A stretch of DNA of 64,000 nt from Pseudomonadota bacterium (GCA_037142195.1 JBAXBA010000002.1:11005-75004); one strand, 5' to 3'. Positions 5,952 to 31,406 are shown, counted from the stretch's first letter. Notes: generated from the sequence alone by a model not told the origin. Numbers and translations are program-made.

Positions 5952-6062
5952 AGACGACGCGCTTAACCTAGTGCCATTGAGTTAATAACTTAGTCACAAT
6001 TGAATAAAGAAGTCGCATTCCCGCAAACAAAAGTACGGAGCTAAATTCAGAGATTTCAAATT

Positions 6063-7394: not shown

Positions 7395-7437
7395 AGTCTG
7401 TTCTCCGAGAAATAGAGATTTTTTTTGTACGCGAGGC

Positions 7438-7495
7438 CATACCCCGGATCGCGCAATTCACGCAAGCATACCCCGGATCGCGCAATTCACGTAAG
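7438..7495. repeat. 2 x 29-bp tandem direct repeat 44-101 nt upstream of the COG2865 gene start
   Basis: cataccccggatcgcgcaattcacgcaag is followed by cataccccggatcgcgcaattcacgtaag, with 1 mismatch. Confidence 0.9.
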
Positions 7496-7678
7496 TATGC
7501 CCGCAGGGTAAAATCGGACTTTTTAAAATATCAATGGTTTCAGTATATTAAACCATCTTAAACTAAGTTCTTTACACTCGGTAGATTGCCATTCGATATT
7601 TGGCCGCATTTAAATGCTAATTCTTAAATCGCGATGGATGGCTTTTGCGCGGCGCTGAGACCGAACGTTTGAGGCGTC

Positions 7679-8851
7679 TCAGAAATATTTATCAAATCCA
7701 CCTTTCCACAAGACTTCGATAAAATCTCGGTAATAGTAGTTTTCTACATCTCCATAGGGACTGAGCTTTGTGATAGTATCTCGAGATACAACTATTGCCT
7801 TTCTTATTTTTGGCTCTATTTTTAAAAGCGAGCTGATGCTTTTAAAATGCCTGCTATTGAGGCGTTCGCTTGATTTTACCTCGATAGCAAAGGTCTCACC
7901 TAAAATAAAATCTACTTCTGATCCAGATTTCGTCCTCCAATAATTCAAACTAAGATTCAATTTTCTCGTATATGAAATGTAAGCTCGGAGCTCTAGTGCA
8001 ATAAGTTGCTCAAATTGATCGCCAAATTCCTTTGATTCTAGTTCGAGTGTAGAAAAACCTGCTAGATAATAGGAGACTCCACAATCAAAAAAATAGAATT
8101 TTGCCGTTGCTACTTGCTTTCGGCTTTTTAAACTATGTGCCGGCTCAACTTCAAATGCGATTAAAGTGTCTTTAAGAATCTGAAAATACTCTTTCGCCGT
8201 TGGACCACTAACCCCAGCGTCCGATGCAAATTGGGCATAGTTGACTTGTTGTCCATTGCAGAGAGCCGCACTTTTTAAAAATCGAGAAAAGGATTGTAGC
8301 TGTCGAATCTCGGATTCTCTTTGAATTTCTTCTTTCAAATACTCGCCACAATAGGCAGCAAGCTCTTCAAGAGGTTCGTCGGATAAGAAAGTCATGGGAA
8401 GACTTCCAAACTGTAATACTCGATTCAAGTCAAAATCATTTCCAACCTCATGTATAGTCAAGGGGAAAAGTTCGGCTCTTCTTGCTCTCCCACCAAGTAA
8501 ATTAGATTGATTTTTAAATAGCTTTCGAGCACTGCTACCTGTTAATAGAAAATGAAGCTTTGAGTCGATAGAGACTAATCGATGCACCTCATTGAGAATA
8601 TCAGGGATTCTTTGTACCTCATCAATGACCACTAATTTTTTGTCCGCTATCATTTGGCTAAGGTAAGTATTGTCTTGGAGTAGCCTCTGGTAAACTCTAT
8701 CGTCCAAAAGATTTATAAGACAAAAGTCTTCACCGGCGAAACAATCTGCGATGAGCGTGGATTTGCCAGTACCTCTTGCACCAAAAAGAAAGTGGCTTCT
8801 TTTTTTCAATAGTTCAAGTAGGTTAACGGACCTTTGGAATTTTCTAGTCAT
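7679..8851 (-). CDS. COG1373/DUF4143-type AAA+ ATPase with PD-(D/E)xK-like C-terminus
   Basis: This 390-aa ORF has Walker A GARGTGKST, Walker B VVIDEVQ, TGSSARKL and the C-terminal segment GSEVDFILGETFAIEVKSS. Confidence 0.85.
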   Translation of the reverse strand: MTRKFQRSVNLLELLKKRSHFLFGARGTGKSTLIADCFAGEDFCLINLLDDRVYQRLLQDNTYLSQMIADKKLVVIDEVQRIPDILNEVHRLVSIDSKLHFLLTGSSARKLFKNQSNLLGGRARRAELFPLTIHEVGNDFDLNRVLQFGSLPMTFLSDEPLEELAAYCGEYLKEEIQRESEIRQLQSFSRFLKSAALCNGQQVNYAQFASDAGVSGPTAKEYFQILKDTLIAFEVEPAHSLKSRKQVATAKFYFFDCGVSYYLAGFSTLELESKEFGDQFEQLIALELRAYISYTRKLNLSLNYWRTKSGSEVDFILGETFAIEVKSSERLNSRHFKSISSLLKIEPKIRKAIVVSRDTITKLSPYGDVENYYYRDFIEVLWKGGFDKYF

Positions 8852-9049
8852 ATATAAACCTCTACTTTAGATTATAGGGCAAATAATAAACTTTGGGTTT
8901 ACTATTTTGCAAGATCATAAATGAGAACCTCTAATTCTTGGTTGATTATCAGGCAAGTACATGAATTTACTTAGTTTTTTATAGGCCCTGCTTTGAAGAC
9001 AATCAGTTGGGTAAAGCATGAGTAGAATCCTTATGGACTACCAAGATTT

Positions 9050-9089
9050 AAAAAGTCCCGACCTTTTTGGAGTACGGTGTAAAATAGGC
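9050..9089. repeat. Half-copy of the 62-bp palindromic element at 29606..29667
   Basis: aaaaagtcccgacctttttggagtacggtgtaaaataggc compares with aaaaagtcgcgacttttttggagtacggtgtaaaataggc at 29628..29667. It lies 213 nt upstream of the ATPase start. Confidence 0.85.
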
Positions 9090-9222
9090 GTATTGGGTTT
9101 TAAATCCCGTTAAATAAAAAGCTATTTGCGCTATATAGCGGTTCAAACCTATCGAAATCGCCACATGAAACTTATACAAACCTTTGTATGTGCTTTTTGT
9201 ACATTTCCCACTTCTTCGATGC

Positions 9223-9409
9223 TAGGGACAATGCTTCAGAGCCAATAAATACATCACACCAGAATCTATGTAGTCCGGCCATGCGGCGCCACTGAAACGA
9301 AAGTTGTTCAACTAGGCGAGAGAACTCGAAAATTAGGTTCGTCTCCGGCTTATGCATTCTTGTGCAATTAGCCTTGCCTTGTGCATTCTTGTGCAATTAG
9401 CCTTGCCTT
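9223..9409. repeat. ~190-bp repeat Q (copy 1), ending in 2 x 29-bp tandem units (9352..9380 and 9381..9409)
   Basis: It is colinear with 22311..22505 (cttcagagccaa.aaatacatcacaccagaatcta...ggcgccactgaaa...ttcgtctccggctt.tgcattcttgtgcaatt). The tandem unit is (a/g)tgcattcttgtgcaattagccttgcctt. Confidence 0.85.
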
Positions 9410-10141
9410 ACAGTCGCGCGTATCATGCAAGAACAAGCAGATGTTATAATAATCGCCGACTGCTGATTTAAACCTGATGCCGTCCGTATTTTCAGGTGCA
9501 TTTTTCCTAAGCCAATGGGCCAGTATTTGGCTTGGTGCCGGATACTTAATATCAACCCATGTACCTGCCATGCTGGACATAGGCACGAGGTTAGCTATGT
9601 TGGGGATTGCTGAGGAAAGACTTATCAAAACCGTATCTATATCAATAAGATTGAGAGCATCTGTTGTTGCGGCTTTTATTTCATAAGTGACTGCGGTTGA
9701 CTTTGCCATACCCTCATCGCCGTATTCTTTGCGAACTCCATTTAAATCCTCGCATATATAAAGAGCAGATTTCTTGCGTCCCATATTGCCAAATTCTTTT
9801 ACGGCCGTGGACGATGTTTGCGCTCCCCCAATATTGTAGCGACCACCATCACTTAAGGAGCCAGCCGTATCGAGAACATCGATAAGTCTACCAACCCTAC
9901 GATAATACGTTTGACGGAAATATTGTTTAATCCAGTCGCTTTCAAAAGTCAGAGGTTCAAGAAGTTTAAAGAGATAGTTACTCTGCGACTGATTAAGTTT
10001 TGCTTCAGACTTCGTTACTTTTTCGACTCTTGTGAGTAGGATTCTGAAATATCGATAGTCCTTAAAAATATGATCACCACTGATTCCAGCGACGATCAGG
10101 TCTTTCCCCGATATAAAAGCTTTTACAAGTTTACGAATCAT
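9368..10141 (-). CDS. RES-domain toxin
   Basis: This 257-aa ORF contains GGRYNIGGAQT ... ALYICED ... DGIRFKSAV, the R/E/S signature context. It sits immediately downstream of an Xre/DUF2384-type gene. The last ~14 codons are encoded by repeat Q. Confidence 0.75.
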   Translation of the reverse strand: MIRKLVKAFISGKDLIVAGISGDHIFKDYRYFRILLTRVEKVTKSEAKLNQSQSNYLFKLLEPLTFESDWIKQYFRQTYYRRVGRLIDVLDTAGSLSDGGRYNIGGAQTSSTAVKEFGNMGRKKSALYICEDLNGVRKEYGDEGMAKSTAVTYEIKAATTDALNLIDIDTVLISLSSAIPNIANLVPMSSMAGTWVDIKYPAPSQILAHWLRKNAPENTDGIRFKSAVGDYYNICLFLHDTRDCKARLIAQECTRQG

Positions 10142-10153
10142 AGCTCCTTATTT

Positions 10154-10552
10154 TTAAGCTGTCATTTCTTGTAGTTTAGCAATGACGCTTTCCGCTTCAC
10201 CTGCCAATGCCTTCTCAAAAGGGGAGCGGCCAAAAAAGAGATGATTAGGAGACATGACCCAAAGAATGGTTTTCTCTTTGTCACCATCATGCAATTGAAA
10301 TGCAAGGTCACTTATCATGACGAGACTAATGAGTCGTTCGCGAACCTTTTTGTCTATGATTGCTGATGGCTGATAAAGTTTAGGGCGCGAAATTTCAAGT
10401 GTCTCTGCAAGTTCTGTTAAAGGAAGACTTGTTAGTTCTGCTATCCGCTTAAACATATCTGTATTGATTTTGGTGAACGCAGAGTTTGTAGCAAACCATT
10501 TGAGATGGTCGCTGACTTGTCCCGTATGTTCGATATAACTGGCATTTCTCAT
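10154..10552 (-). CDS. Xre-type antitoxin with DUF2384-like toxin-binding C-terminus (partner of the RES toxin)
   Basis: This 132-aa ORF has the HTH-like segment LTELAETLEISRPKLYQ. Its C-terminal segment ILWVMSPNHLFFGRSPFEKALAGEAESVIAKL is typical of RES partners. Confidence 0.7.
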   Translation of the reverse strand: MRNASYIEHTGQVSDHLKWFATNSAFTKINTDMFKRIAELTSLPLTELAETLEISRPKLYQPSAIIDKKVRERLISLVMISDLAFQLHDGDKEKTILWVMSPNHLFFGRSPFEKALAGEAESVIAKLQEMTA

Positions 10553-10775
10553 GTGAACCTCTCAAAGGCAAAATCACCCTCTTATCCCACTATACTCTAA
10601 GATCGGAATAATTCTCAATAACTTAAGTAAATCTAGTTAGTTGACACTATAAGTACATATTTTTACAGAAATAAAACATTTTGTGACATCAAGGAATTAA
10701 TGACCTTTTTTGGGATCGCGCCTCAAAACCTGTTAGTTCCACTTAGACTATGCCTTAGGGCAAAACCCCTTTTTA

Positions 10776-10940
10776 CACCCATGATTTTTGAGAACTATAA
10801 AACCTTCCTTTTTGTATCCCAGAATCTATCTCTTCAAAAATAGGTAAAATATTTGGAATGCCATAGCATTAGTAGCAATCTCGTGAGAATCCACGTCCCA
10901 AAGATTTGATGATTTTTGAAGTCATGGGAGATCCCATCTT
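10776..10940 (+). repeat. IS4-type remnant, copy R2
   Basis: cacccatgatttttgaga.ct.taaaacc.tcctttttgtatcccagaatct.tctcttcaaaaa.aggtaaaatattt ... gtcccaaagatttgatgattttt is shared with R1, R4 and R5. Confidence 0.7.
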
Positions 10941-10969
10941 TACTCATTCACCAGCACTCGATCAAATGC

Positions 10970-11959
10970 TCAAGGTAAGGAGAGCCCATTAATCTTAAAT
11001 TCAAGAGTTTTGATTTGGCTCAGGAGATCGGAGAAATCAGGAATTTCGCCATAGATCATGACTTGCATTTCTCTGTAGTCTCTTTCTAGCGAAGAACGTA
11101 TGTGTTCAGGGGGCAAGAGCCGCATAGTTCCAGGTTTGGCGAGATCATATCGGGCCCAGCCGCGAGGATAAAATCGCTCTTTGGACGCGACAACAGATGC
11201 AAGTAAACTGAGATCGCTAAAAGCTGCCTCCTTTACGGGGGATTGGGCTAAACGCGCAAGATCATAGTAATGGCGCGAATAGCGATCCGGTTGAGTGTTT
11301 CCCTCTGGACGAAAGGCTTCATGGTGAAGAATAGTTGCCTTTTCCCAGAAAGTTCGTTCGGCCTTTATGCACTGCACATGGCATGTCTTCCTGTTGAATA
11401 CATTCGGGAATTCCTCAGCACAGTAAGGTGTAATTTCATATTTTTCATTTGGTGTCCATATCGCCAATGGTCCGATTTCTAATCGTATCTCAGGCCTGAT
11501 GTAAGTCTCAGCGAAAGAAGCTGGGTATTTCACAGAAATGACATTTGGGTCTTTTGGGTCAAGTTCAACCTTGACAACCGGCGCAAGGAGCTGAATACAT
11601 AACGGTAGTAGCTGGTCCCGAATATAATCCTGTGCTGCTACTTGTAACTGTTTGTTGAATTGATCCTGTTTTGTTCTTGATCTCTTTGCCTCAGGGTCTT
11701 CGTTGGTTATTTCCTTCCAATCGAGGATGAGGTCTATATCTTCAGAGAAACGCTCGATAAGTCCAAACACTTTGGAAAGTGAAGTGCCGCCCTTGAACAA
11801 GATTTTTCGTGCGAGGCTAGGATCGTCAAAGAGTTTCGCAATTGACCAGCACACCCAGAAGTCTTTTTCAGCGATGGCATTCGATAGGCCACGTCGGGTG
11901 GCGGTTTCACGAAAAAGTTCAGCACGATCTTTAGCTGGTAATGTCGCTATTTTATCCAT
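10970..11959 (-). CDS. abiEii: AbiEii-family nucleotidyltransferase toxin
   Basis: The start is taken at MDKIATLPAKDRAELF (ATG 11959), which overlaps the abiEi stop (TGATG). Family motifs are AIAEKDFWVCW and FKGGTSLSKVFGLIERFSEDIDLIL. Confidence 0.85.
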   Translation of the reverse strand: MDKIATLPAKDRAELFRETATRRGLSNAIAEKDFWVCWSIAKLFDDPSLARKILFKGGTSLSKVFGLIERFSEDIDLILDWKEITNEDPEAKRSRTKQDQFNKQLQVAAQDYIRDQLLPLCIQLLAPVVKVELDPKDPNVISVKYPASFAETYIRPEIRLEIGPLAIWTPNEKYEITPYCAEEFPNVFNRKTCHVQCIKAERTFWEKATILHHEAFRPEGNTQPDRYSRHYYDLARLAQSPVKEAAFSDLSLLASVVASKERFYPRGWARYDLAKPGTMRLLPPEHIRSSLERDYREMQVMIYGEIPDFSDLLSQIKTLEFKINGLSLP

Positions 11960-12570
11960 CAATCTCCCCCCTGGCATATCTTGACTATAGCCGCATGAAT
12001 CCATCCAGTTGTGATTTTGGTGTCAATTAAAACTTTTCTAGACAGGCGAGGATCAAGCCAGTTTCGTATGGTCTCGATGGTATTAGCGTTAATTCTATCA
12101 GAGCCAAGGGATTTTAGACCCTGAACTATGATCGAACTTTCTCTGTGGGCGAAGCCTGTTTCTTTTAAGGTCGTATGCTTGAAAACGATACTATTTTTTC
12201 CAATCTTAAACACGCGGTTTGGTCCGTCGGAAACATAGACAACCTGTCCTGGAACTTGGTCAGTAAGTCTCATAAGACTCAGTGCCGACGGGCCATTGAT
12301 TTGAATGCGCCATCCAAACTTTCGGGCAATAGCATTGGCTACTGCATCGAGATCGGGACTTAGCGGTTGTTTCAGTAATTCGCTGTATTGTGGCAAATCG
12401 TAAATGCCACGGACAACACGCCTAATGGTTCCATTTTCGGCCAGGCGATGTAGGGCGCTATCCACGCTAGATCGGATTCCGAGGTGGCCAAAGTCCTTGC
12501 TGGAGAACGCCCAAGCAAAACCTTGGGCTGATATTGACCTAACTATTCGTTTTTCTAAAGAAATATTCAT
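11959..12570 (-). CDS. abiEi: AbiEi-family (DUF6088-like) antitoxin
   Basis: The start is taken at the ATG at 12570 (MNISLEKRIVRSISAQGFAWAFSSKDF..ALHRLAENGTIRRVVRGIYDLP). The track ORF extends further upstream through non-homologous sequence. Confidence 0.8.
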   Translation of the reverse strand: MNISLEKRIVRSISAQGFAWAFSSKDFGHLGIRSSVDSALHRLAENGTIRRVVRGIYDLPQYSELLKQPLSPDLDAVANAIARKFGWRIQINGPSALSLMRLTDQVPGQVVYVSDGPNRVFKIGKNSIVFKHTTLKETGFAHRESSIIVQGLKSLGSDRINANTIETIRNWLDPRLSRKVLIDTKITTGWIHAAIVKICQGGD

Positions 12571-12700
12571 ATGTATACCACCATATCTTGCAAGAAATAT
12601 TATAACATTTTTCTTGCAACAATACAGCAAAATTGGCTCCCTTGGAGAATGCCCAAAGGAAAGACATTTGGGCGAAGACCTAAACAATCACAAAACGCAT

Positions 12701-13140
12701 TCTTTGATTTTTGTCTACTTTAAAACAATGCATTTTATATCCCAAAGCCGCCCTTTCCATAACAGGTAAAATATTTGTAAAGATATGACGCTTGTAGGGA
12801 TCTCATTTAAGCCAACTTCCATGATATTAATTAGTATTGCAATAGTGAGAGCTGAACCTTTAGTCTTTCAGTAGCATTCGATATAAAGTTACTATTTGGA
12901 CCAAACTCCGATCGTTCTCTACGCTCAGCAGTGATTTGGCATTAGCAAAATCCCTTTAATCTCAAAAAAGAACCACTATCAATGGGCATTCCCTCTCCCT
13001 CATGAAATAACTCATACTCCTTGGAATCACTCCACCCATCAGAGCAAAACCTGAAGACCTTCATCCATTGCCAGAGCTGCGGCTTTCAAAAGACTTTCCT
13101 CGTAGTTTGAAGATTGATTTCAGAATCGATAGTGTCAGCT
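12701..13140 (+). repeat. IS4-type remnant, copy R3 (diverged homologue of ~30800..31319)
   Basis: It is colinear with R5 at roughly 80% identity by eye (ttttatatcccaaa, aggtaaaatattt, aagttactatttgg, ccttggaatcactccacccatcagagcaaaacctgaa). Confidence 0.7.
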
Positions 13141-13521
13141 AGAGGGCATATAGTGGCCTTAAGTTCTGGGGGTGTCATGGAAGTGGTCCGTCAGAGCTGG
13201 CTTAGGATCTAGAAAAAGAGGAGGACATATGCCTTTTGGATCAGAAATTTTAGGCGGTATTTTAGTTGGCCTTGGCATGGCTATAACGCTCTTATATGAA
13301 AGTCAGATTTCAGGAGCGTCGGGCTATGCAGCGGCGAGCTTAAGACCAAGTCCTACCGGAAGAGCGGAGCTCTATTTTGTCGCAGGTCTCGTTTTGGCAG
13401 GGCTGATTTGGCGGTTTGCGGGAGGTCATCTGAGTGATGCTGATGAGAGTCATCTCGGAATTCCAGCCTGGATTCTTGCTGGGCTATTGGTGGGCTTTGG
13501 AGCCCGCTTAGGAGGAGGCTG
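13141..13521 (+). repeat. Near-perfect direct repeat of 31320..31699 (yeeE leader + first 98 codons)
   Basis: A base-by-base reading finds one extra G (ctggggg vs ctgggg) and two substitutions (ggaattcc/ggacttcc, ttcttgct/ttctagct) in 381 bp. Identity ends after ggaggaggctg. Confidence 0.95.
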
Positions 13522-13528
13522 TATTTAG
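13229..13528 (+). pseudogene. Truncated duplicate of the yeeE/yedE-like gene (first ~98 codons)
   Basis: It has the same RBS and ATG as 31407 (aggaggacatATG) and an identical protein up to ..GFGARLGGGC. It then diverges into I-stop instead of the conserved TSGHGVCG. Confidence 0.85.
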
Positions 13529-13574
13529 AAAATCTTCAATGATCAACAAAGCAAATCTAAACTGGCTTGCACTG

Positions 13575-15563
13575 CTAACTTATTTCGTTAATTCTAGGTA
13601 TCACTGTCTTCACAGCTGCTCCGGCTTGCAGAAGCAATCTAAGAAGCTGCGCATGCGCTATGGGTTTTGGTATGAAACTATCAGCTCCAGACTCAATTGC
13701 AAACTTGTTATCGGCAGCAACGATGCGGTTTGAATGGATACAAATAAGTGCCTTGGAGCCACGGCGCCTCAACTCGGCAACGAGTTCAAAGCCATTCAAA
13801 GACATTTTGCCCATGTCAACATCAGTGACTATGAAGTCATAGTCATGGTTTGTGATAGCTTGTAAAGCTTCAATCGAACCATCGGCCTGAGTCAATTCTA
13901 ACGCCTTACTTAGTTCCGGCGTTCTCATCATATGTGATGCAAGCGCACTTCGGTAGATGGGCTCATCGTCTACAATCAATACCCGCAAAGGACGACCGAT
14001 GGATGAATGCGCGAGCAAGACATCTTCTTCCAATGATAATTCACCCTTATCGATACTTGTTGAGGCTTGAATTTTTTCCGTAAGCAGTGTCAACTGCTTT
14101 GCTATGTCAGAACTGTGCTGCGGCAAACTTGCCGTGGTGGCATTGAGTTGGTTGGCAGTAGGCAACGTAAAGAAAAACTCAACCTTGCCCTCAGGGTGTT
14201 CTGACGTCTTACTCGATTCGCACCAAATCTTGCCACCGTGAGCATTTACTACCTTTTGTGCAATGGCCAGTCCAAGGCCTGTGCCGCCCTTTTTGCCGCT
14301 AGTAAAAAAAGTATCAAAAAGCTTAGCTAGATTTTCTTCTAGAATCACAGAGCCTTCATTACCAATACAAAAAGTAATCATTCCTTTTGATTCCAAAGTC
14401 TTAAACCACATCGATCCTTTGTACCTCATCTCCTGGAAAGCATTGTCCACGATGTTAGAGAACACGCGGCTGATTTTTTGGACATGAACGTATGCCAAGT
14501 GAGTGTGTTCAAAGTCGTAAGAGAATGAAATTTTAGCGTCAGGATAAATTCGAACAACGTCCCCAAGAGTCGATTCAATTATAGATTCAGGGCTTACTGC
14601 CTCTTGTATCAACTTAACCGAGGATGACCCAATCTCCATTACGTCAGCAAGCATACCATCAACACCAATCATAGCACTGTCAATCTGGGGAACGACGCGA
14701 GACATCACCTTTTTCACACTTTCAGGATCTTTGGCATTGCCAAGCATCGCAAGACCGATACGCAACATGGTTAAAGGCTTGCGGACGTCGTGGGCTAACA
14801 TTTGGGTGGTGCGGGCAATTGCCTCATCAGTGCGTGCTTGAAATTTAACTTCGGCCTTTTCAGCTTCGCTTAGGCGAATAGCAATTGCAAGCTCACCGAT
14901 TTCGCGAGCAAGTCTTCGAATGACTGTAACCAGGCGCATTTCTTCTGACGAGCTCGGATTCTTAGGGCTCTGTGCCGTCTTGACAGTCTCGTGATTTCTT
15001 ACAGGATCGCTAAGGATCTGATCAGCGAGAGCTTCAATAGCAGAGATAGCTCGATCCAGGTTCGAAAACTCATTTTTCATCGTGTGTCGTACTGAAATCA
15101 GTATCAAGGAACAAAGTACTAGCAAGCTAAGGCTAATCAAGCCAATAACGTGAATAGTTGGTTCCACCCAAGCAGATCTATCCACAAAAAGATGGATAAC
15201 ACCCCAGCTAGTTCCCATCTCATCAAGAACCGCTACGGTCTCATGGGGGCCTTCGGTGGCACCAATATTGCAAATTTCGACGCCTTGCTGATTATTGACC
15301 TTAACCCCAGTAAATAAACCAGTTTCCAGCGCCATACGCATTGTGTTTTTAATTGGCAAGCTATCGGATGATATTAAATGACTGACGATATTATTTGGAA
15401 GTGATGCCCGCCAGGTGACAATTTGGCGAGACTGAAACGACTGAACTGTGACCCCGATACTGAAACCAGCAATAATAATTACTAATATAGACCCTAGTAA
15501 TGCTTTAGGAGCGATGGCTCGCATTAATTTTGAATAAATGCTACTTAAGGAGTGAGAGCTCAT
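13575..15563 (-). CDS. Hybrid sensor histidine kinase (2 TM + periplasmic loop, HisKA, HATPase_c, C-terminal receiver)
   Basis: Motifs read: H-box MLAHDVRKPLTML, N-box NIVDNAFQE, G-box GGTGLGLAIAQKVVNAHGG. The receiver has VLIVDDEP ... FIVTDVDMG ... FIPKPI. Two hydrophobic segments flank a ~110-aa loop. Confidence 0.9.
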   Translation of the reverse strand: MSSHSLSSIYSKLMRAIAPKALLGSILVIIIAGFSIGVTVQSFQSRQIVTWRASLPNNIVSHLISSDSLPIKNTMRMALETGLFTGVKVNNQQGVEICNIGATEGPHETVAVLDEMGTSWGVIHLFVDRSAWVEPTIHVIGLISLSLLVLCSLILISVRHTMKNEFSNLDRAISAIEALADQILSDPVRNHETVKTAQSPKNPSSSEEMRLVTVIRRLAREIGELAIAIRLSEAEKAEVKFQARTDEAIARTTQMLAHDVRKPLTMLRIGLAMLGNAKDPESVKKVMSRVVPQIDSAMIGVDGMLADVMEIGSSSVKLIQEAVSPESIIESTLGDVVRIYPDAKISFSYDFEHTHLAYVHVQKISRVFSNIVDNAFQEMRYKGSMWFKTLESKGMITFCIGNEGSVILEENLAKLFDTFFTSGKKGGTGLGLAIAQKVVNAHGGKIWCESSKTSEHPEGKVEFFFTLPTANQLNATTASLPQHSSDIAKQLTLLTEKIQASTSIDKGELSLEEDVLLAHSSIGRPLRVLIVDDEPIYRSALASHMMRTPELSKALELTQADGSIEALQAITNHDYDFIVTDVDMGKMSLNGFELVAELRRRGSKALICIHSNRIVAADNKFAIESGADSFIPKPIAHAQLLRLLLQAGAAVKTVIPRINEIS

Positions 15564-16768
15564 AGTATACCTCTACGCCTTACCAATGCTGGAAACAATA
15601 CGAACATCTGCAAGACTCCTGCTGTTATAAAAAGTAAAGGAAGTGCGTTTAAAGAATAAGCGCCAATAACTACAAATGGAGATAAAGCCATTGCAATCCC
15701 TGATGCTACGCTGGTCATGGACACTGCCCTAACCTGTTCGCCTAGTGATGCTGCCTTTAGAATGAGGTCATCTCTTCGACTAAGAACACCTAGCTCCATG
15801 CCTATTCGCGCCAAAAGTATCATTAAAATTATGGTGACAATTTGATCCGAATCCCCAATCAGATAAAGTAGAAATCCGTTTGGAATCAAGAAAAAAGATG
15901 CAACAGCCCGAATAGATTTGATACCCCAAATATTCCTATATGCGAGGTTGGCTAAAAATATAGAGGTAGCCTCGATCGCCCAAAACGCCCCCCGGAAGGA
16001 ATCTGGCAGCACAGTAAGCGGGACAAAAAAGGAGTTGGAAGATGCAATCAGGGGGATAATAGCCACACATGCATATGACAATACGACGAATAATAGATAG
16101 ATCAGCATACTCGAGTCCGTGAATAGGCCAAATTTTTCTGCCGATTTGGAGCCGCCATCGCTCTTCGTCGCCTGGCTTCCCCAATCGCCATTCTTAAAGA
16201 ATTTGGTCTGCGGCAGCAAAATTGCGGCGACCAAATAGGTTGCTAAATCAAAGCAAAGCACGCCTTGCCATCCACCGAAGTGCTCAATGATTGGCCATGA
16301 TAGACCTGCAAGCAAAAAAGATATTGCCGCAATAGTACCGCGTAGTGCCTGCGACGATTTGAATTTATGCTCATCACTTTCAACTCGCCGAAAAATGACG
16401 GTGATAACATTGTTCAACACTACTGAAGGTATCGCTGAGGCAACTATCACAGCAACCGACAAGCCAGGTTGCTTGAACCATAGGGCTAAACCTAACAAGA
16501 CATTGCAAAGTACGCCGATAATTTGCGACCCCAATACAGAAGTCCGACCTCCTAAATGGAGCGACAAACCAGATCCAGCCAGGACCAAGGCAGACACACA
16601 AAGAGTTTTTAAACTTAATGCGATTGCCACCGCCTCAAGTCCGCCGCCTATGACCCCAACTGTTTTGAATCCTACAAAGGATGTTAAATTGGTGCCAAAA
16701 TTAGTCAATCCGAGAAGTAAAAGCATAGCCAAACGCTCATTATTTTTCACTTTATCATCCGCGTTCAT
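15560..16768 (-). CDS. MFS-type transporter
   Basis: This 402-aa ORF is almost entirely hydrophobic, with ~12 predicted helices. Its ends overlap the neighbouring genes by 4 nt and 14 nt. Confidence 0.7.
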   Translation of the reverse strand: MNADDKVKNNERLAMLLLLGLTNFGTNLTSFVGFKTVGVIGGGLEAVAIALSLKTLCVSALVLAGSGLSLHLGGRTSVLGSQIIGVLCNVLLGLALWFKQPGLSVAVIVASAIPSVVLNNVITVIFRRVESDEHKFKSSQALRGTIAAISFLLAGLSWPIIEHFGGWQGVLCFDLATYLVAAILLPQTKFFKNGDWGSQATKSDGGSKSAEKFGLFTDSSMLIYLLFVVLSYACVAIIPLIASSNSFFVPLTVLPDSFRGAFWAIEATSIFLANLAYRNIWGIKSIRAVASFFLIPNGFLLYLIGDSDQIVTIILMILLARIGMELGVLSRRDDLILKAASLGEQVRAVSMTSVASGIAMALSPFVVIGAYSLNALPLLFITAGVLQMFVLFPALVRRRGIL

Positions 16769-17999
16769 ATACTAGGAAGTGCCTTCCGACTTCTTTTGCT
16801 ACCAACTCAATCCTTTTCAGATTATGGGATTTCAATAGATCATCGTATTCGCTAAGTGTTCTCTCTTTGCCACCAGCTTGAAGTAACATATTGAAATCGT
16901 AACCTGCGTTCTTTATACGATCATCTTCTAAGGGGCGTTCTAAGACAATGATCTTTCCTCCTGGCTCAAGGTAAGCCAGAGCATTGCGAAGAATAGAATC
17001 GCAGGTTAAATCGTCCCAATCGTGCAAGATCCAGCCTAGGATAAGACAGTCAAAGGCTTCCAGTTGTGTTGAAGTTGAAGCTTTCTCGTGTTGAACTGTA
17101 AAATCCTGATAGAAACGCCGAATGTTCAAGTCATCCGCTCCACATACTGTAGTGCGAAGCTTTTGCAAAGAGAATTGGGTGGAGGGGTGATCCATTACCG
17201 TGAAGTCCGCTGGTCTCAAAAAAATTGACTTGCATGCCAACATCACTTGGCCTATGCCACCACCAACATCGAGAAATTTTGTCGATCCTGTTTTTTCCAA
17301 ATAATCCGCTAGCTCTAGGTTACTTTGCCAATTAGAGAATGCAAACGTCAAGGCATGAAGGGCCATCAGATCATCCGGTTTGTCGTAGTGATCAAAAAGT
17401 CGAGTTGAAGAAAGTTCAAAGGCAACATCAGCGACACTTCCACCACGCTCTAAACCGAGTAAAATACAGTCATTAGTCATTGCTCTGCGAACTACATGTC
17501 TGTAGAAAGTAAGCGTCATCAAATTTGAAGCCTCATAAAATAGATTTGGCTCGTTCTTATAAAGTAGACTTAGGGATCCTGCAAAAGAGATTATCTGATC
17601 GACATAGGATATGATCGCCCCCAGTGAGCTCTCACTTTCAATCTCAGATTTTAGCCATTGTATAAGTTCCGTTTGAGCATAAGTTTCGCGACGATGTTCA
17701 GTCATCTTAAAAGCTATTCCAGTTGAAGTTTTTTCGAGCATGCACATGCCTGATTCAACAAGAGCATTTAGCATTCTCTGGCATGCCTCCAATTTCCATC
17801 CGAAATGGGCGGCTAGATCTGATGCAAAAAAACGAGCCTGCACATAATCTCCCGCTGTTGCGGCCTTTAAGTACTTTTCAATTCGAGGTTTTGCAAAGTC
17901 TTCAATTCTAATAAGAACAAATATCCGCAAGTCATCGCGATCAAGTTTTTTACTCCATTTCTGGTAAGTCTCCAGAATAGGCTTATCTATTATTTGCAA
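16755..17999 (-). CDS. SAM-dependent O-methyltransferase, family 2 (COMT-like) with N-terminal wHTH/dimerisation region
   Basis: Motif I is FLDVGGGIGQV. The C-terminal part ILGWILHDWDD...YLEPGGKIIVLE...FNMLLQAGGKERTLSEYDDLL is typical of Methyltransf_2. The TTG start follows GAGGTG. Confidence 0.8.
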   Translation of the reverse strand: MQIIDKPILETYQKWSKKLDRDDLRIFVLIRIEDFAKPRIEKYLKAATAGDYVQARFFASDLAAHFGWKLEACQRMLNALVESGMCMLEKTSTGIAFKMTEHRRETYAQTELIQWLKSEIESESSLGAIISYVDQIISFAGSLSLLYKNEPNLFYEASNLMTLTFYRHVVRRAMTNDCILLGLERGGSVADVAFELSSTRLFDHYDKPDDLMALHALTFAFSNWQSNLELADYLEKTGSTKFLDVGGGIGQVMLACKSIFLRPADFTVMDHPSTQFSLQKLRTTVCGADDLNIRRFYQDFTVQHEKASTSTQLEAFDCLILGWILHDWDDLTCDSILRNALAYLEPGGKIIVLERPLEDDRIKNAGYDFNMLLQAGGKERTLSEYDDLLKSHNLKRIELVAKEVGRHFLVYERG

Positions 18000-19522
18000 G
18001 CATCACCTCGAGAAATTTTTTCAAGATAAGAAAATGAATTGGGACTAATGAGCACCCCGGAGAGACTATTTGGAATTTGAATACAGCTCTTTACGAAATT
18101 TACATGCCCTACATGATACATCGGTATCATGATAGATTCCTCGAAAATATCCCGGTCAAGTTCGCGATAGATCTCAAAGCGATCACTTAGATTAGGCAGT
18201 CCCATAGCGCGATGCAATAAATCAACATATAGAGGCTTAGTGTAAAAAAAGAATAGATTACCATCGCCTGGCAAAAATCTTCTAAAAACGGCGCCAGCAT
18301 CCCTAGATGGAAATAGAAAAAGTTCAATGTATGCAGCAGTTTTTGGGTGACCTTCTCTAGGACTCATCTCTGCATAGCTCTTCTCATATTGAAAATTTGC
18401 CTGAAGCCCCACACTTGCCATGGCCTTTGTAATACGCTCTTGATCACATGTGGATGCACGTCCTATGTGTTCGTAAATGGTTACAATTGAGTCTGCCGCC
18501 GACAACTTGGGAAAACTAAGAGCCTTTTGTGTAGACGATATATTAGGTTTTTTGTTAAGGCTTCCACCTATACCGGGTGGGATAAAGCCAATTGCAGATG
18601 TGGTCCCTGGGGAGCACTGTTCGATCTTTTGTATGTCGCTAATTTGGCGGTGAAGCTCCTGCCTTCTATTTTTGTCTTTAAATGCTGCAAATTTTGGGTT
18701 GACCACAAGAGTTTGGGTAACAGACGCAGAGTGAAAGTGCTTATTATAGGCTGCAGAGTGAATTTTAGCTCCCGTGGAGGATAGATACATAGCCGCGACA
18801 TCGACCGTGCCTGCGTCTAATGTTTGGGCAATATTTTTTTCATCGTAATAGCGAAAAGTAATTTTATCATGTTTCGCTTCTTTGGGGGTTCTCTTCATGA
18901 ATTCGTTGGGCACGACTGTAGCCTCATTGGCTAATTTGGAGTCGACCCGGTAGGGACCACTTCCAATAGTTGATCCATTTGAAGCAATTTTGAATACAGA
19001 AACGTTCAGAGATGCTATTCGATACAAAAAACTACTTGGATCAAACTTTAATTGAAAAATCACCGAAGTTCGGTCCGTAGACTCCCTGATTCCCACAGCA
19101 TTTGAATTGCCCTCAATACACCCAGCCAAATCATCTAGAAGGTCACGAATGCGACTTTCCTTCGAGCACAGAATCTGAAATGAACGAACGATGTCTGCAG
19201 TGGTAACATTACTGCCATCAGAAAATTTATGCTTAGGGCGAATGACAACGCTCAATTCCTTATGTGATCGATCGAATGTCCATGATTCAGCTAATTCAGG
19301 GGCAATCGCACCATCCTCATTCAACTTAAAAAGTCCTTCATAGATGAGTGACAAAATAAAACGTTCCTGAGCGATAGCAACTTTTTGCGGCTCAGTATTT
19401 AGGATAGGATTTGGTATGGCAACAAGCAAATTGTCTTGACCTTGTTTTTTAGCCAACGCAGCGCTGGAAATAAAATAGAATACCCAAATCACGAACAATT
19501 TTTTTCGGCTAAACATCCTCAT
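17990..19522 (-). CDS. Periplasmic solute-binding protein, family 5 (OppA/DppA/NikA-like), orphan
   Basis: It has a Sec signal peptide (MRMFSRKKLFVIWVFYFISSAALA). The family-5-like body includes LVAIPNPILNTEPQK, LFKLNEDGAIAPELAESW and GSGPYRV. No permease or ATPase genes are nearby. Confidence 0.75.
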   Translation of the reverse strand: MRMFSRKKLFVIWVFYFISSAALAKKQGQDNLLVAIPNPILNTEPQKVAIAQERFILSLIYEGLFKLNEDGAIAPELAESWTFDRSHKELSVVIRPKHKFSDGSNVTTADIVRSFQILCSKESRIRDLLDDLAGCIEGNSNAVGIRESTDRTSVIFQLKFDPSSFLYRIASLNVSVFKIASNGSTIGSGPYRVDSKLANEATVVPNEFMKRTPKEAKHDKITFRYYDEKNIAQTLDAGTVDVAAMYLSSTGAKIHSAAYNKHFHSASVTQTLVVNPKFAAFKDKNRRQELHRQISDIQKIEQCSPGTTSAIGFIPPGIGGSLNKKPNISSTQKALSFPKLSAADSIVTIYEHIGRASTCDQERITKAMASVGLQANFQYEKSYAEMSPREGHPKTAAYIELFLFPSRDAGAVFRRFLPGDGNLFFFYTKPLYVDLLHRAMGLPNLSDRFEIYRELDRDIFEESIMIPMYHVGHVNFVKSCIQIPNSLSGVLISPNSFSYLEKISRGDACK

Positions 19523-20811
19523 GCCAATGCACCCTCGACTGTTTTAGTCTCGTCTTCATCAAGTTGTTCGCGTAGTTCAGGGTTTTCTATTATCATAAGT
19601 GCAATTTCCCTCTCCTTGGATATCTGTTTTGACTCACCATATAGCCTAGTCAGCTCGATAAGTGGACTTAAAGCTAAATTGTCAGCTTTTGCAGATGCTA
19701 GAAATGACCGTTCAGCAGCGCCCAGGTCTCCTAAGTTTTTTTCACATTGCCCCTGTAGATGTAAGTTCATGGCCGTGGCAGGAGGACCTAATGATGCTGC
19801 TTGTTTAAAATGAACGAGTGCTTTTTCGTGATTTTTTATTTTGCAAAAATGCAAACCTAATTCGCTATGGGACGTTGAGTCATAGGGATCCAAATGAGAC
19901 ATTTGTGAAAAGGCTGCGACCGCTTGATCTGTATCATTACGTGAGAGGTAGAGCTTAGCAAATGATTGCCACAAAGTGGCTTGTAACTCATCTCGAAGTG
20001 TGGACCAAGGTTTATTCTCAGTGTTGATCATTTGAGAGGCTTGTAGAGCACGATCCATTAACTTTAGGACTGAGTCGTACGACAATCCTGGTGTCATGGC
20101 AAGACCCCTTAAAGCTGTCGACCACTTGAGGGCTTGCCCCCAATCTTTTGGCGAAAATTTGAGCCAACTGTCGAGATTGGAAAGAATCGCAGCTGCGTGT
20201 TTACGAGCGTGAATCTGGCCGCGTTCGAATCGGGATGACACGACTACAATGCGTGCTATAAGCGAAATATGTTCGAGCAGTAAGGCATTATCAACGGTGG
20301 AAGCCATCTCGGCAAGATTTTCAAGTTTGCTAAACGAAGCTGAAATGCCAAGATCTAAATCTAGTATTTGGAAAAGAAGTGCTCGTTGGCTTTCGTATTT
20401 GAAGAATATAGTTGAACTTGCATCTGTGGACTTAAAAGCTCGAATTTCTTCTATAAGTCCATATCGAGCAAGCACAGCCATCAAAGGAATTAGAACGGAA
20501 TCTACGTGATAAGAGTCACAAGGTAAATGTGCTACAGATGATGCAGCATCCGCCAGTCGCTTTCGAAATGACTTTAGTTCGGTGGCAGCTTCCGCATTTT
20601 CTAATCGATCTATTTCGTGAAAAAATTCCGGGTTTGGAATTCTTTGGGGAAATGAAATGTCTTTTGCGCGCCCAGCAAGTAATCCCTCGATTCCATTTAC
20701 GTGAGACCAAAACCAGGCAAAGAACTCGGAATTCCGAGTGGAATAGGAGCTCGAATATCCGCAATATCCAGGCGTAATATTTGAAAAATTCGCATTTATT
20801 AAAGGCAACAA
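19519..20811 (-). CDS. TPR-repeat protein, first gene of the operon
   Basis: This 430-aa ORF has C-terminal TPR-like repeats (AVAAFSQMSHLDPYDSTSHSELGLHFCKIKNHEKALVHFKQAASLGP...). The TTG start lies 6 nt after GGAGAG. The stop overlaps the SBP start. Confidence 0.6.
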   Translation of the reverse strand: MLPLINANFSNITPGYCGYSSSYSTRNSEFFAWFWSHVNGIEGLLAGRAKDISFPQRIPNPEFFHEIDRLENAEAATELKSFRKRLADAASSVAHLPCDSYHVDSVLIPLMAVLARYGLIEEIRAFKSTDASSTIFFKYESQRALLFQILDLDLGISASFSKLENLAEMASTVDNALLLEHISLIARIVVVSSRFERGQIHARKHAAAILSNLDSWLKFSPKDWGQALKWSTALRGLAMTPGLSYDSVLKLMDRALQASQMINTENKPWSTLRDELQATLWQSFAKLYLSRNDTDQAVAAFSQMSHLDPYDSTSHSELGLHFCKIKNHEKALVHFKQAASLGPPATAMNLHLQGQCEKNLGDLGAAERSFLASAKADNLALSPLIELTRLYGESKQISKEREIALMIIENPELREQLDEDETKTVEGALA

Positions 20812-21225
20812 ATACTCTCCATTTAGTCTTCAGTCTATGAGAGGAATTTTGGGTTCAGGAAGGGGGACTGTAGTCCCCCTCTTGGCTATTGCCATGCTCC
20901 TACCGGTATTACTTTTAAGTACCTGCGTAGTTTGCGCCGGCAGCTTTCCGTTTAGACTTAAACATTATCATTCTCCTTTCTGTTTTCCCATTGTTTGACT
21001 TGAGGTCTTTCATGCACTGAGCTGGTGTTTCGCTGGCCCATAAATTGAGGCCTTTGAAAGCTGAGTACTTTGAAAAACCGCAAAAACTCACAACGATCCA
21101 AAGGCAATCTCCGTGCCACTAGTTTTTTCACTGGCAACCCCTCGAAACCACGTCCAAACCTAGTATAGCGGGTGCTCCAAAACTCTAAATTCGTCCCGGC
21201 CGTGGTACAAAATCTTTTCATTTGC

Positions 21226-21468
21226 CTAGAATATGGGCAAAAGTGGTAAATAAATGGACCCACAGGGATAAGCGAGGCCATCAAAGACTAGGCGATCCGA
21301 TATGTCTTTCGGAGAATCCTCAAGCAAGGCCTTTAAAACTCCAAACACGGCGTAATCTTTCCATACTATTTCACTGGAAATCCCCAGCGCATCTGCAGTA
21401 TTCAAAGTGGCATCATGGATTTTTTCATCTAAAAAGAGTGAGCCAAAGTTGGACATTAGGGACTCCAT
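21226..21468 (-). pseudogene. N-terminal fragment (~65 codons) of an AbiEii toxin gene
   Basis: SSEIVWKDYAVFGVLKALLEDSPKDISDRLVFDG matches the AbiEii N-terminal pattern (EKDF..L..L.....LVFKGGT). It then breaks off, and the NTase core (SEDIDF) is absent. Confidence 0.55.
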
Positions 21469-29578: not shown

Positions 29579-29605
29579 GGTGAAATGCCCTCACTTAGGA
29601 GTTTG

Positions 29606-29667
29606 CCTATTTTACACCGTACTCCAAAAAAGTCGCGACTTTTTTGGAGTACGGTGTAAAATAGGCT
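29606..29667. repeat. Perfect 62-bp palindrome (31-bp arms, no loop, centre tcgcga)
   Basis: gcctattttacaccgtactccaaaaaagtcg|cgacttttttggagtacggtgtaaaataggc. All 31 pairs were checked by hand. It lies 28 nt upstream of the ATPase start and 10 nt downstream of the preceding ORF. Confidence 0.95.
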
Positions 29668-29676
29668 GATTTTGCC

Positions 29677-31319: not shown

Positions 31320-31406
31320 AGAGGGCATATAGTGGCCTTAAGTTCTGGGGTGTCATGGAAGTGGTCCGTCAGAGCTGGCTTAGGATCTAGAAAAAGAGGA
31401 GGACAT

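Follow-up and report, generated by a model that had tools for sequence, protein, structure and literature searches.

We identified a module of five tightly packed genes, encoding a helical-repeat (TPR) protein, a periplasmic binding protein with no transporter genes next to it, a small-molecule O-methyltransferase, a divergent MFS-like membrane protein, and a hybrid sensor kinase, which is kept together in at least four distant bacterial lineages and for which we found no description in the literature. Our preferred reading, held tentatively and inferred from gene content, is that the module is a self-contained autoinducer-like circuit that makes, releases, and senses its own small chemical signal.

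Organization of the operon

The genes lie in a 64,000-nt stretch of a Pseudomonadota bacterium (GCA_037142195.1 JBAXBA010000002.1:11005-75004), hereafter the window, with positions counted from its first letter. The initial annotation described five overlapping minus-strand genes at 13575-20811, and this observation is correct. The stop/start overlaps are 4, 10, 14, and 4 nt. The features are as follows.

19519-20811, minus strand: first gene, cytoplasmic TPR protein of 430 aa, TTG start with a GGAGAG ribosome-binding site.
17990-19522, minus strand: orphan family-5 periplasmic solute-binding protein of 510 aa, proposed ligand-binding co-sensor of the kinase.
16755-17999, minus strand: cytoplasmic class I small-molecule O-methyltransferase of 414 aa, TTG start with a GAGGTGA ribosome-binding site, proposed maker or modifier of the ligand.
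15560-16768, minus strand: divergent MFS-like polytopic membrane protein of 402 aa, proposed exporter and/or co-sensor coupled to the kinase.
13575-15563, minus strand: hybrid histidine kinase of 662 aa.
21103-21118, minus strand: tentative sigma-54-type promoter element (TGGCAC-N5-TTGC), 307 nt upstream of the TPR start codon.
13019-13521: left copy of a direct repeat of about 500 bp.
31198-31699: right copy of the direct repeat.

The two repeat copies (353 nt at about 99% identity) bracket a 17.7-kb segment carrying the operon, as initially annotated, and the left copy ends 54 nt from the kinase stop codon. This left copy duplicates the upstream region and 5' part of the sulfur-transport-family gene at 31311-31817. 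In this genome the operon sits in an accessory island full of toxin–antitoxin and defense genes, but island location is not a general property of the module (see below). The core of the sigma-54-type element matches perfectly, against a background of 0.02 per kb for matches of at least 9 of 10 positions. However, the evidence is weak, as the element is present in the 95%-identical locus L001, but not upstream of the operon in the loci L183, L180, L182, or L021. All five genes are under purifying selection against L001 (dN/dS 0.13–0.32).

Properties of the encoded proteins

Pfam profile searches placed TPR_1, TPR_2, and TPR_12 hits at residues 279–370 of the first protein, below the curated per-family cut-offs except for TPR_2. 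The protein has no signal peptide and no catalytic domain. Its AlphaFold2 (AF2) model is all-alpha but of moderate quality (pLDDT 69, above 80 only for residues 240–430), and only two homologue clusters were found among 5.8 billion proteins. The proposal that it might bind peptides in the manner of RNPP receptors (Rap, NprR, PlcR, PrgX) finds no support, as no HTH or other domain was detected and the top 50 Foldseek matches are generic TPR superhelices (designed CTPR, OGT, APC/C, LGN) that include no RNPP protein.

The binding protein matches SBP_bac_5 at 84.3 bits against a cut-off of 32.4, and begins with a signal peptide read directly from the sequence, MRMFSRKKLFVIWVFYFISSAALA|KK; N-terminal signal peptides are present in all orthologues. 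Among solved structures it has only distant relatives, which are peptide, opine, and nickel binders. Unlike family-5 (cluster C) binding proteins encoded with a cognate ABC importer, it has no ABC permease or ATPase gene among the 35 larger window ORFs scanned, and no ABC genes are adjacent to it in the five other loci where it is present, including L021, L180, L182, and L183, although a distal importer elsewhere in the genome cannot be excluded. The same scan of window ORFs found no Hpt protein or response regulator. The best NCBIfam matches of the binding protein are nickel and opine-metallophore binders (NikA, E = 2.5e-16; CntA, E = 1e-3), and MFS exporters accompany opine metallophore systems, which raises the possibility that the protein reports a metal–chelate complex to the kinase while the methyltransferase and MFS-like protein make and export the chelator. 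We consider this very unlikely, since all of these matches lie far below the family cut-offs (59 bits against 393 for NikA), peptide and opine binders score as well or better among solved structures, and no nicotianamine-synthase-like, opine-dehydrogenase, or ABC permease genes were found among the ORFs scanned.

The methyltransferase matches Methyltransf_2 (PF00891) at 67.7 bits against a cut-off of 22.3, and retains the SAM motif LDVGGGIG and the catalytic His in ILHDWDD; H326, D327, and W328 are invariant in a 46-sequence alignment, although the L182 orthologue has Pro in place of the His. The AF2 model (pLDDT 79, pTM 0.82) aligns over its full length, about 400 columns, to MmcR, ASMT, TnmH, PhzM, and DnrK with probability 1.00. 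The wHTH-like N-terminal domain noted initially is thus the ordinary dimerization domain of this family, here longer than usual and with low-confidence inserts. The protein is 100% identical to MEI8024942.1, which is annotated only as a methyltransferase.

The MFS assignment could not be confirmed on the protein itself, which has no Pfam or NCBIfam hit even at E = 10. A hydropathy scan gave about 10–12 hydrophobic segments. Only 56 homologue clusters were found among 1.8 billion representatives; of 28 homologues examined 19 match MFS_1, as does the L183 orthologue.

The kinase has two hydrophobic segments near residues 22–40 and 139–157 enclosing a periplasmic loop of about 100 aa, followed by the H-box (H258 in LAHDVRKP, with a weak HisKA hit), HATPase_c (66 bits), and a receiver domain (Response_reg, 62 bits) with conserved D581 and K633. 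No Hpt domain was detected. The loop has no Pfam match and forms a family of its own, with a motif conserved in L017, L021, L180, L183, and the homologue P0113.

Conservation of the gene set

Conservation of the neighborhood had been proposed beforehand as the decisive test of the module, and it is met. All five components occur in the same order in three other lineages, with GC contents from 39% to 66% and identities of 26–51%. These are L183 (34/51/30/35/40% identity in operon order, junctions –4, –10, +4, and 0), L180 (30/36/33/29/33%), and L182 (32/36/28/28/26%, with the MFS-like protein and kinase fused). In each the TPR orthologue (30–34% identity) is the first gene. Orthologues of the binding protein were found at 30–53% identity in L183, L180, L182, and L021 and as homologues P0168–P0171. 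Partial sets comprise methyltransferase, MFS-like protein, and kinase in L017, and binding protein, methyltransferase, and kinase in L021 and L020. In L183 the operon sits among core genes, outside any island. The region surrounding the operon in the window is a shuffled array of cassettes differing between close relatives, but chance adjacency of the five genes within a mosaic island is already refuted by this conservation, by the overlapping junctions, and by the fusion of two components in some relatives.

The MFS and TPR genes are absent from L021 and were lost from L020, a close relative whose remaining genes are 91–96% identical in DNA to the window and in which the MFS gene is cleanly deleted while the binding protein, methyltransferase, and kinase genes are kept. 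However, the L020 binding protein gene has a frameshift and the L021 kinase a frameshift and a stop codon, so these may be decaying copies.

Evidence for coupling of the kinase to the MFS-like and binding proteins

In three distant relatives, P0113, P0129, and P0149, the MFS-like domain is fused to a histidine kinase carrying the same periplasmic sensor loop (kinase residues 25–446 align to P0113 426–839, E = 2e-30). Where separate, in the window, L017, L180, and L183, the MFS gene lies directly upstream of the kinase gene, with junctions ranging from a 4-nt overlap to abutting. The initial proposal that the MFS protein simply exports the signal is therefore too simple, and the protein appears to be part of the sensor, not just an exporter. 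It is possible that it is a non-transporting co-sensor, in the manner of UhpC with UhpB, and that the methyltransferase tunes the sensor or an intracellular ligand, so that the system perceives an external cue and releases nothing; the three independent MFS::kinase fusions, the constant position of the MFS gene directly upstream of the kinase gene, and the divergence of the protein, too great for it to match the MFS_1 model itself, are consistent with this. We consider it unlikely, as the fusions are equally compatible with a working transporter that reports flux, as described for the SLC5-kinase CbrA (PMC7096432), PF00891 enzymes act on small molecules rather than, as far as is known, on receptor proteins, and the L020 and L021 kinases exist without the MFS gene.

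The cytoplasmic core of the kinase defines a paralogue family, surveyed here on metagenome contigs of unknown taxonomy. All 10 distinct paralogues with a 2-TM periplasmic loop and readable upstream sequence have an SBP_bac_5 or Peripla_BP_6 gene in the operon, whereas none of about 8 with polytopic or soluble N-termini has one, supporting the initial suggestion that the binding protein is a co-sensor of the kinase. These paralogous operons often carry a biosynthetic enzyme in the same slot, namely AfsA with CMD (locus L106), a YcaO-like protein (L102, L104, L122, and L123), or radical SAM plus GNAT with an EamA-family transporter (L115). The nearest other methyltransferases (P0005–P0007, among the top 7 of 5.8 billion proteins) lie in analogous clusters of 2-TM kinase, methyltransferase, Biopterin_H hydroxylase, LysE exporter, and Peripla_BP_6. 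LysE is an efflux-only family, which fits a make, export, and sense-outside arrangement. These contexts lend indirect support to the idea that the enzyme makes the signal.

Proposed function

The initial interpretation of a signaling system in which the methyltransferase makes a molecule that is exported and then sensed is partly supported. The analysis establishes that the five genes form one tightly coupled operon kept together across distant lineages, that the binding protein carries a secretion signal and has no transporter genes next to it, that the kinase has a family-specific periplasmic loop, and that the MFS-like protein is fused to the same kinase type in some relatives. The mechanism itself, including the signal, methyltransferase activity, transport and its direction, docking, and output, is inferred. 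In this view, the cytoplasmic O-methyltransferase would methylate an ordinary cellular metabolite to produce a small signal, which the MFS-like protein would move across the inner membrane while physically coupled to the kinase. The orphan binding protein would capture the signal in the periplasm and dock on the kinase loop, switching autophosphorylation and His-to-Asp transfer to the kinase's own receiver domain. From there the signal would have to pass to an unlinked Hpt protein and response regulator, one candidate type being the sigma-54-dependent regulator encoded next to the L182 version, and the TPR protein would be a cytoplasmic scaffold or adaptor. The circuit would work like a quorum-sensing-type loop, one of a set of parallel enzyme, binding protein, and hybrid kinase circuits sharing a conserved kinase core. 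We rate this the best explanation but short of an even likelihood, since, besides the gene losses and the L182 substitution noted above, the operon has no other biosynthetic gene, no Hpt protein or regulator is linked to it in the window, the sigma-54-type element is not conserved across lineages, some enzymes of the paralogous operons are equally typical of xenobiotic modification, and the paralogue survey rests on metagenome contigs of unknown taxonomy.

The main alternative, which we regard as possible but doubtful, is a sense-and-process module in which the binding protein and kinase detect a foreign small molecule (a toxin, another organism's signal, or a nutrient derivative), the MFS-like protein imports or effluxes it, and the methyltransferase inactivates or converts it, the operon being both detector and response. 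This would be comparable to uptake and modification of AI-2 by Lsr, or to drug-sensing efflux modules. O-methylation plus an MFS protein is a common detoxification pair, no precursor-forming enzyme accompanies the methyltransferase, the operon is in a defense-rich island in this genome, and paralogous operons also carry alpha/beta hydrolases, hexapeptide acyltransferases, GNAT, and thioesterases, families that include xenobiotic-modifying enzymes; the first three are equally typical of xenobiotic modification. Against it, AfsA, known only from signal-molecule biosynthesis, occupies the same slot in a paralogous operon, efflux-type LysE and EamA carriers rather than importers accompany the analogous clusters, no importer was found with the binding protein, and the L183 operon has a core chromosomal context. 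Even under this reading, the module would be a new, widely transferable way to couple periplasmic detection of a compound to its modification.

More speculatively, and in our view unlikely though not excluded, the operon may represent a previously unrecognized modular class of cell–cell signaling circuits in Silvanigrellaceae-like (Bdellovibrionota) and other bacteria. In each circuit an interchangeable signal-making enzyme (PF00891 methyltransferase, AfsA, YcaO-like, or radical SAM/GNAT) and an exporter would be paired with a dedicated transporter-less binding protein and a hybrid kinase, so that many chemically distinct autoinducers would converge on a single phosphorelay through the shared kinase core. 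In the present subfamily the exporter would itself be wired to the kinase, coupling secretion and perception.

Quorum-sensing chemistry is known from only a handful of bacterial groups, and nothing comparable has been described for Silvanigrellaceae, or in those papers on Oligoflexia and quorum sensing that we could search. If the autoinducer reading is right, the operon gives a compact and genetically tractable blueprint for finding new autoinducers, with enzyme, carrier, binding protein, and kinase in one operon, and a binding protein that can be used directly as bait for the signal. The MFS::kinase fusions would add a second transporter superfamily, besides SLC5, to the transporter-coupled sensor kinases.

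Comparison with known systems

In LuxP–LuxQ (the Vibrio AI-2 receptor) and TorT–TorS, a periplasmic binding protein serving no transporter is likewise encoded next to a 2-TM hybrid kinase lacking an output domain, and acts as its ligand-binding subunit (PMC8050422). Several such kinases can feed one Hpt protein and a sigma-54-dependent regulator (LuxU/LuxO), and the L182 version lies next to a regulator of this type. However, the binding protein here is SBP_bac_5, not Peripla_BP_1 or Peripla_BP_4 (the family of LuxP), the short loop does not resemble the tandem-PAS periplasmic domain of LuxQ in Pfam searches, and the only LuxN and TorS similarity in NCBIfam lies in the cytoplasmic core. The putative signal enzyme and a transporter-like protein are also in the same operon, whereas luxS is unlinked.

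CBP–ChiS, the Vibrio chitin sensor, is a documented pair of an SBP_bac_5 protein with a hybrid sensor kinase (PMC8050422), but CBP also delivers chitin oligosaccharides to an ABC transporter, the periplasmic domain of ChiS is dCache-like, and no methyltransferase, MFS, or TPR partner is known. In the methyl-ester quorum sensing of Ralstonia (PhcB–PhcS), a single SAM-dependent methyltransferase turns a primary metabolite into a diffusible signal sensed by a histidine kinase encoded in the same operon, but Phc is not known to have a binding protein, a transporter-like partner, or a TPR protein.

In UhpC–UhpB and the SLC5/STAC kinases (CbrA, CrbS, RpuS), a transporter-fold membrane protein acts with, or is fused to, a histidine kinase as its sensing part (PMC7096432, PMC5715377, PMC9100948), as in the MFS::kinase fusions found here. 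The fused domain is, however, MFS-like rather than SLC5, Pfam and NCBIfam searches found no SLC5 domain, STAC linker, or homology to UhpC, and the kinase in the fusions keeps its own 2-TM periplasmic loop. Finally, an AfsA-domain enzyme, the hallmark of butyrolactone and furan signal synthesis in actinomycetes, occupies the enzyme slot of the paralogous AfsA-CMD-Peripla_BP_6-hybrid kinase operon in L106 and L120, but known AfsA signals are read by cytoplasmic TetR-type receptors rather than by a binding protein plus kinase, and the window itself carries a methyltransferase, not AfsA.

Operon structure and protein families

The five overlapping minus-strand genes described in the initial annotation were confirmed by our reanalysis. 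The stop/start overlaps between successive genes are 4, 10, 14 and 4 nt, and the ORFs, in order of transcription, are as follows.

19519-20811, minus strand, TPR protein
17990-19522, minus strand, SBP_bac_5 binding protein (SBP) with a signal peptide
16755-17999, minus strand, Methyltransf_2 O-methyltransferase (OMT)
15560-16768, minus strand, divergent MFS-like protein
13575-15563, minus strand, hybrid histidine kinase (HK)

Pfam profile searches identified the TPR repeats, SBP_bac_5, Methyltransf_2, and HATPase_c plus Response_reg domains, with a weak HisKA hit in the kinase. The binding protein has an obvious signal peptide, and the kinase has two hydrophobic segments enclosing a loop of about 100 residues and retains the phospho-acceptor His (H258) and the receiver Asp (D581) and Lys (K633). 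The fourth protein matches no Pfam or NCBIfam model, and an exhaustive HMMER search recovered only 56 homologue clusters among 1.8 billion representatives; 19 of 28 aligned homologues match MFS_1, and we therefore refer to it as a divergent MFS-like protein. A search of a plasmid collection with this protein gave no match. The predicted structure of the methyltransferase (pLDDT 79) aligns over its full length with MmcR, ASMT, TnmH, PhzM and DnrK, so that the N-terminus initially annotated as wHTH-like is the usual dimerisation domain of this family. Relative to a 95%-identical locus (L001), all five genes are under purifying selection (dN/dS 0.13-0.32).

The TPR protein has only two homologue clusters in the word-indexed database searched. 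It lacks a signal peptide and has a conserved N-terminal motif (GYxG…LNS.F(F/Y)A..W), and its predicted structure is all-helical and matches only generic TPR superhelices. We found no catalytic or DNA-binding domain and no resemblance to the RNPP receptors suggested as an analogy in the initial annotation, leaving a scaffold or adaptor as the default inference. We also considered whether its conserved His (ALVHFKQAASLG) could be a hidden Hpt site, but rejected this possibility because the residue sits at a variable position of an ordinary TPR repeat, no Hpt profile hit exists, and the fold is predicted to be a TPR superhelix.

The methyltransferase is 100% identical to MEI8024942.1, and the MFS-like protein, from its residue 7 on, to MEI8024941.1. 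Both come from a metagenome-assembled genome (MAG) labelled 'Pseudomonadota bacterium' and are annotated only as 'methyltransferase' and 'hypothetical protein', respectively; an exact search with the binding protein returned nothing. Close relatives come from freshwater MAGs, namely Lake Erken bin-3819 and GCA_040396915.1, and a more distant version from a Lake Mendota MAG labelled Silvanigrellaceae, from which we infer a probable freshwater member of the Silvanigrellaceae or a near relative.

Regulatory elements

Rfam and tRNA scans of the window found nothing. A scan for consensus sigma-70 promoters found no more sites than shuffled sequence (12 against 14.3), and the terminator-like sites (15 against 7.4) are weak and scattered inside genes, none of them following the kinase gene on the strand of the operon. 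A perfect sigma-54 core element was found upstream of the TPR gene.

21103-21118, minus strand, TGGCAC-N5-TTGC, 307 nt upstream of the TPR start codon

This element is one of only two perfect cores in the 64 kb and is present in L001, but it is absent upstream of the operon in the more distant versions L183, L180, L182 and L021, and hence a sigma-54 promoter cannot be regarded as a conserved feature of the operon.

Conservation of the gene set

Lack of conservation of the neighbourhood had been named beforehand as a result that would refute the proposed unit, and the gene set was found to be conserved.

Table. Versions of the operon in other loci. Identities to the window are in percent and follow the order of the listed components.
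Locus; source and GC; gene content; identity to window (%)
L183; 189-kb JGI contig, 42%; TPR-SBP-OMT-MFS-hybrid HK, junctions -4, -10, +4, 0; 34/51/30/35/40
L180; GCA_043757325.1, 39%; same five genes, kinase lacks the receiver; 30/36/33/29/33
L182; Logan SRR22105544, 66%; TPR-SBP-OMT, then one 1106-aa MFS::kinase protein; 32/36/28/28/26
L017; metagenome contig cut upstream; OMT-MFS-HK; 34/35/48
L021; Silvanigrellaceae MAG; SBP-OMT-HK, kinase has one frameshift and one stop codon; 30/26/37
L020; Lake Erken MAG, 91-96% DNA identity; SBP (frameshifted)-OMT-HK; near-identical

The methyltransferase and kinase are present in every version, and the binding protein in every version whose upstream sequence is available, whereas the TPR and MFS genes are frequent but dispensable or lost in some copies. 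Chance adjacency of the five genes is excluded. In L020 (CAIMVM010000228.1, 1368-6272 against window 12717-19487) the MFS gene is cleanly deleted (window 15639-16750 is missing), leaving a 76-nt 3' remnant, the TPR gene is replaced by unrelated sequence, and the binding-protein gene carries a frameshift. In L021 the in-frame stop of the kinase lies inside the G-box. It is possible that these are decaying copies, or that the lesions are MAG assembly errors.

The L183 operon lies among core genes (flagellin, carD, rpsO, pnp, dut). The GC-rich L182 version is preceded by a sigma-54-dependent response regulator, an RpoN-like gene and a second, class I methyltransferase (274 aa), the last lying just upstream of the TPR gene. 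The OMT of L182 (6689-7876) has Pro in place of the catalytic His (WIFPDWDD instead of WILHDWDD) but keeps the SAM motif.

Genomic setting

A direct repeat of about 500 bp (353 nt at about 99% identity, preceded by about 150 nt at 90%) brackets a 17.7-kb insert carrying the operon.

13019-13521, left copy of the repeat
31198-31699, right copy of the repeat

The repeat duplicates the upstream region and 5' part of the sulfur-transport-family (PF04143) gene at 31311-31817, leaving a truncated copy at 13172-13528, and looks like the footprint of an element that integrated into, or recombined at, that gene. Besides the operon, the insert holds DUF6088, AlbA_2/HATPase_c_4, HTH, HEPN and two AAA_14/DUF4143 genes. 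The wider region (1-31000) is an array of toxin-antitoxin and defence-like cassettes comprising two full AbiEii genes plus a truncated remnant at 21226-21468, two DUF6088 genes, RES, HEPN, one AlbA_2/HATPase_c_4 and one HATPase_c_4 protein, and three AAA_14/DUF4143 paralogues at 7679-8851, 26529-27677 and 28397-29578. The cassettes are separated by recurring repeats, for example a 111-nt unit at 5307, 10785, 12707, 27961 and 30804, and their order differs in L001 and L020, window 5610-12704 being absent at the corresponding junction.

A perfect 31-nt palindrome was found at 29605-29635 / 29636-29666. One arm also forms a 40-nt inverted repeat (95%) with 9050-9089, and the sequence at 9050-9148 recurs as a 99-nt direct repeat (78% identity) at 29627-29725; these may be cassette boundary or recombination sites. 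Since the operon is not in such a cassette region in L183, mobility is a local circumstance and not a defining trait. Unrelated to the operon, window 33000-62700 is a long surface-polysaccharide biosynthesis region whose GC is lower from about 39 kb on (0.34-0.41 against 0.38-0.50 in the first 39 kb), with NDP-sugar epimerases/dehydratases, a split transketolase, a nucleotidyltransferase, a DegT aminotransferase, GT2 and GT87-like transferases, two asparagine-synthase paralogues and an AT3-SGNH acyltransferase.

Fusion of the MFS-like protein to the kinase

Three homologues of the MFS-like protein (P0113, P0129 and P0149) carry this domain at the N-terminus of a histidine kinase. The kinase part contains the same periplasmic loop family as the window kinase, residues 25-446 of the latter aligning to P0113 residues 426-839 with E = 2e-30, and the motifs W..S(L/F)P…SD..P and (D/K)DE.G..WG are shared. 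In the fusion, the two kinase membrane helices (near residues 419 and 534) follow the MFS-like helices, and we infer that the loop remains periplasmic if the MFS-like part has the usual twelve helices. This Rosetta-stone fusion shows that the two proteins act together and that the MFS-like protein belongs to the sensor. The initial proposal that it exports the methyltransferase product may still be true, but is incomplete. That it is instead a non-transporting co-sensor seems unlikely.

Kinase paralogues and their operons

A metagenome scan recovered about 35 loci with kinases 53-62% identical to that of the window over residues ~230-662 but with unrelated N-termini, and their operons were annotated with Pfam and local profiles. 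The periplasmic loops of these paralogues do not share the loop family of the window kinase (best profile match E > 1). All 10 distinct kinases with a 2-TM periplasmic loop and readable upstream sequence (L100/101, L102, L104, L106, L109, L114, L115, L118, L123 and L128) have an SBP_bac_5 or Peripla_BP_6 gene in the operon, whereas none of about 8 distinct kinases with polytopic or soluble N-termini has one.

Several kinds of enzyme are encoded between binding protein and kinase, or just upstream. Short YcaO-like proteins (296-330 aa, weak Pfam hits) sit directly upstream of the hybrid kinase in four sequence-distinct loci (L102, L104, L122 and L123), behind an SBP_bac_5 gene in L102, L104 and L123, the L122 contig being cut upstream. 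On sediment metagenome contigs (GC 55%), L106 (6641-11671) and L120 (4237-9267) have a tight operon of an AfsA-domain protein (butyrolactone-type signal synthase), a CMD-family protein, a Peripla_BP_6 protein and a hybrid kinase, which would represent an AfsA product read by a binding protein plus kinase instead of a TetR-type receptor. L115 has an EamA carrier, a radical SAM enzyme and a GNAT. Kinases without a binding protein follow a class I methyltransferase (L112), DUF455 plus a thioesterase (L113), or an alpha/beta hydrolase plus a hexapeptide transferase (L117, L121). The window operon is thus one instance of a general design with a variable enzyme slot. However, several of these enzyme families are ambiguous between biosynthesis and xenobiotic modification, and it remains possible, although we consider it doubtful, that the system detects a foreign compound, imports or effluxes it, and methylates it.

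A second design is built around a related methyltransferase. Outside the orthologues, the nearest methyltransferases among 5.8 billion proteins include P0005-P0007, which lie in recurrent clusters (loci L008-L015, for example L008 6749-12360) of 2-TM histidine kinase / PF00891 OMT / Biopterin_H aromatic amino-acid hydroxylase / LysE carrier / Peripla_BP_6 binding protein, found in at least three sequence-distinct versions and preceded by SnoaL-like and CN_hydrolase genes. Only the methyltransferase and the generic kinase core are homologous to the window proteins, the carrier and the binding protein being analogues from other families. LysE proteins are efflux carriers, and the cluster therefore reads naturally as one that would hydroxylate and methylate an amino-acid-like compound, export it and sense it outside, making it a candidate amino-acid-derived signalling circuit that is apparently undescribed.

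Proposed mechanism

The initial interpretation of a self-contained signalling system, in which the methyltransferase makes a small molecule, the MFS protein exports it, and the binding protein and kinase sense it, is supported in part. Our analysis establishes the operon structure and its conservation, a secreted binding protein without a transporter, a family-specific periplasmic loop, the coupling of MFS-like protein and kinase, and intact catalytic motifs, whereas the functions that follow are inferred. We infer that the methyltransferase converts a common metabolite into a signal, that the MFS-like protein carries it out while in contact with the kinase, and that the binding protein returns the information by docking on the loop. 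The kinase would then relay phosphate through its receiver domain to an unlinked Hpt protein and regulator, possibly sigma-54-dependent as suggested by L182.

The complete autocrine model is tentative, as there is no chemistry behind it at all, the MFS and TPR genes are lost in some copies, the catalytic His is replaced by Pro in L182, and several enzyme families in the paralogous operons are ambiguous between biosynthesis and xenobiotic modification. The narrower statement that this is a binding-protein-dependent kinase module working with the methyltransferase is far more secure, and metallophore sensing appears very unlikely. Literature searches for this gene set, for Silvanigrella or Oligoflexia signalling, and for AfsA with a kinase and binding protein found no description. 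We conclude that the operon is a real, conserved and undescribed module, with a signalling role inferred from sequence alone, and that it opens a wider, testable pattern in a poorly studied group of bacteria.

Comparison with known systems

In this view the module would work like LuxP-LuxQ or TorT-TorS, where an orphan binding protein serves a hybrid kinase. It shares its protein families with CBP-ChiS, an SBP_bac_5 protein paired with a hybrid kinase (PMC8050422), and resembles PhcB-PhcS in placing a methyltransferase with a kinase, and UhpC-UhpB and the SLC5/STAC kinases in coupling a transporter fold to a kinase (PMC7096432, PMC5715377). A binding-protein-dependent hybrid kinase with a linked signal enzyme is a known kind of system, but the operon is not a member of any of these families. 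The binding-protein family, the periplasmic loop and the transporter fold differ, and no known system combines the five parts.
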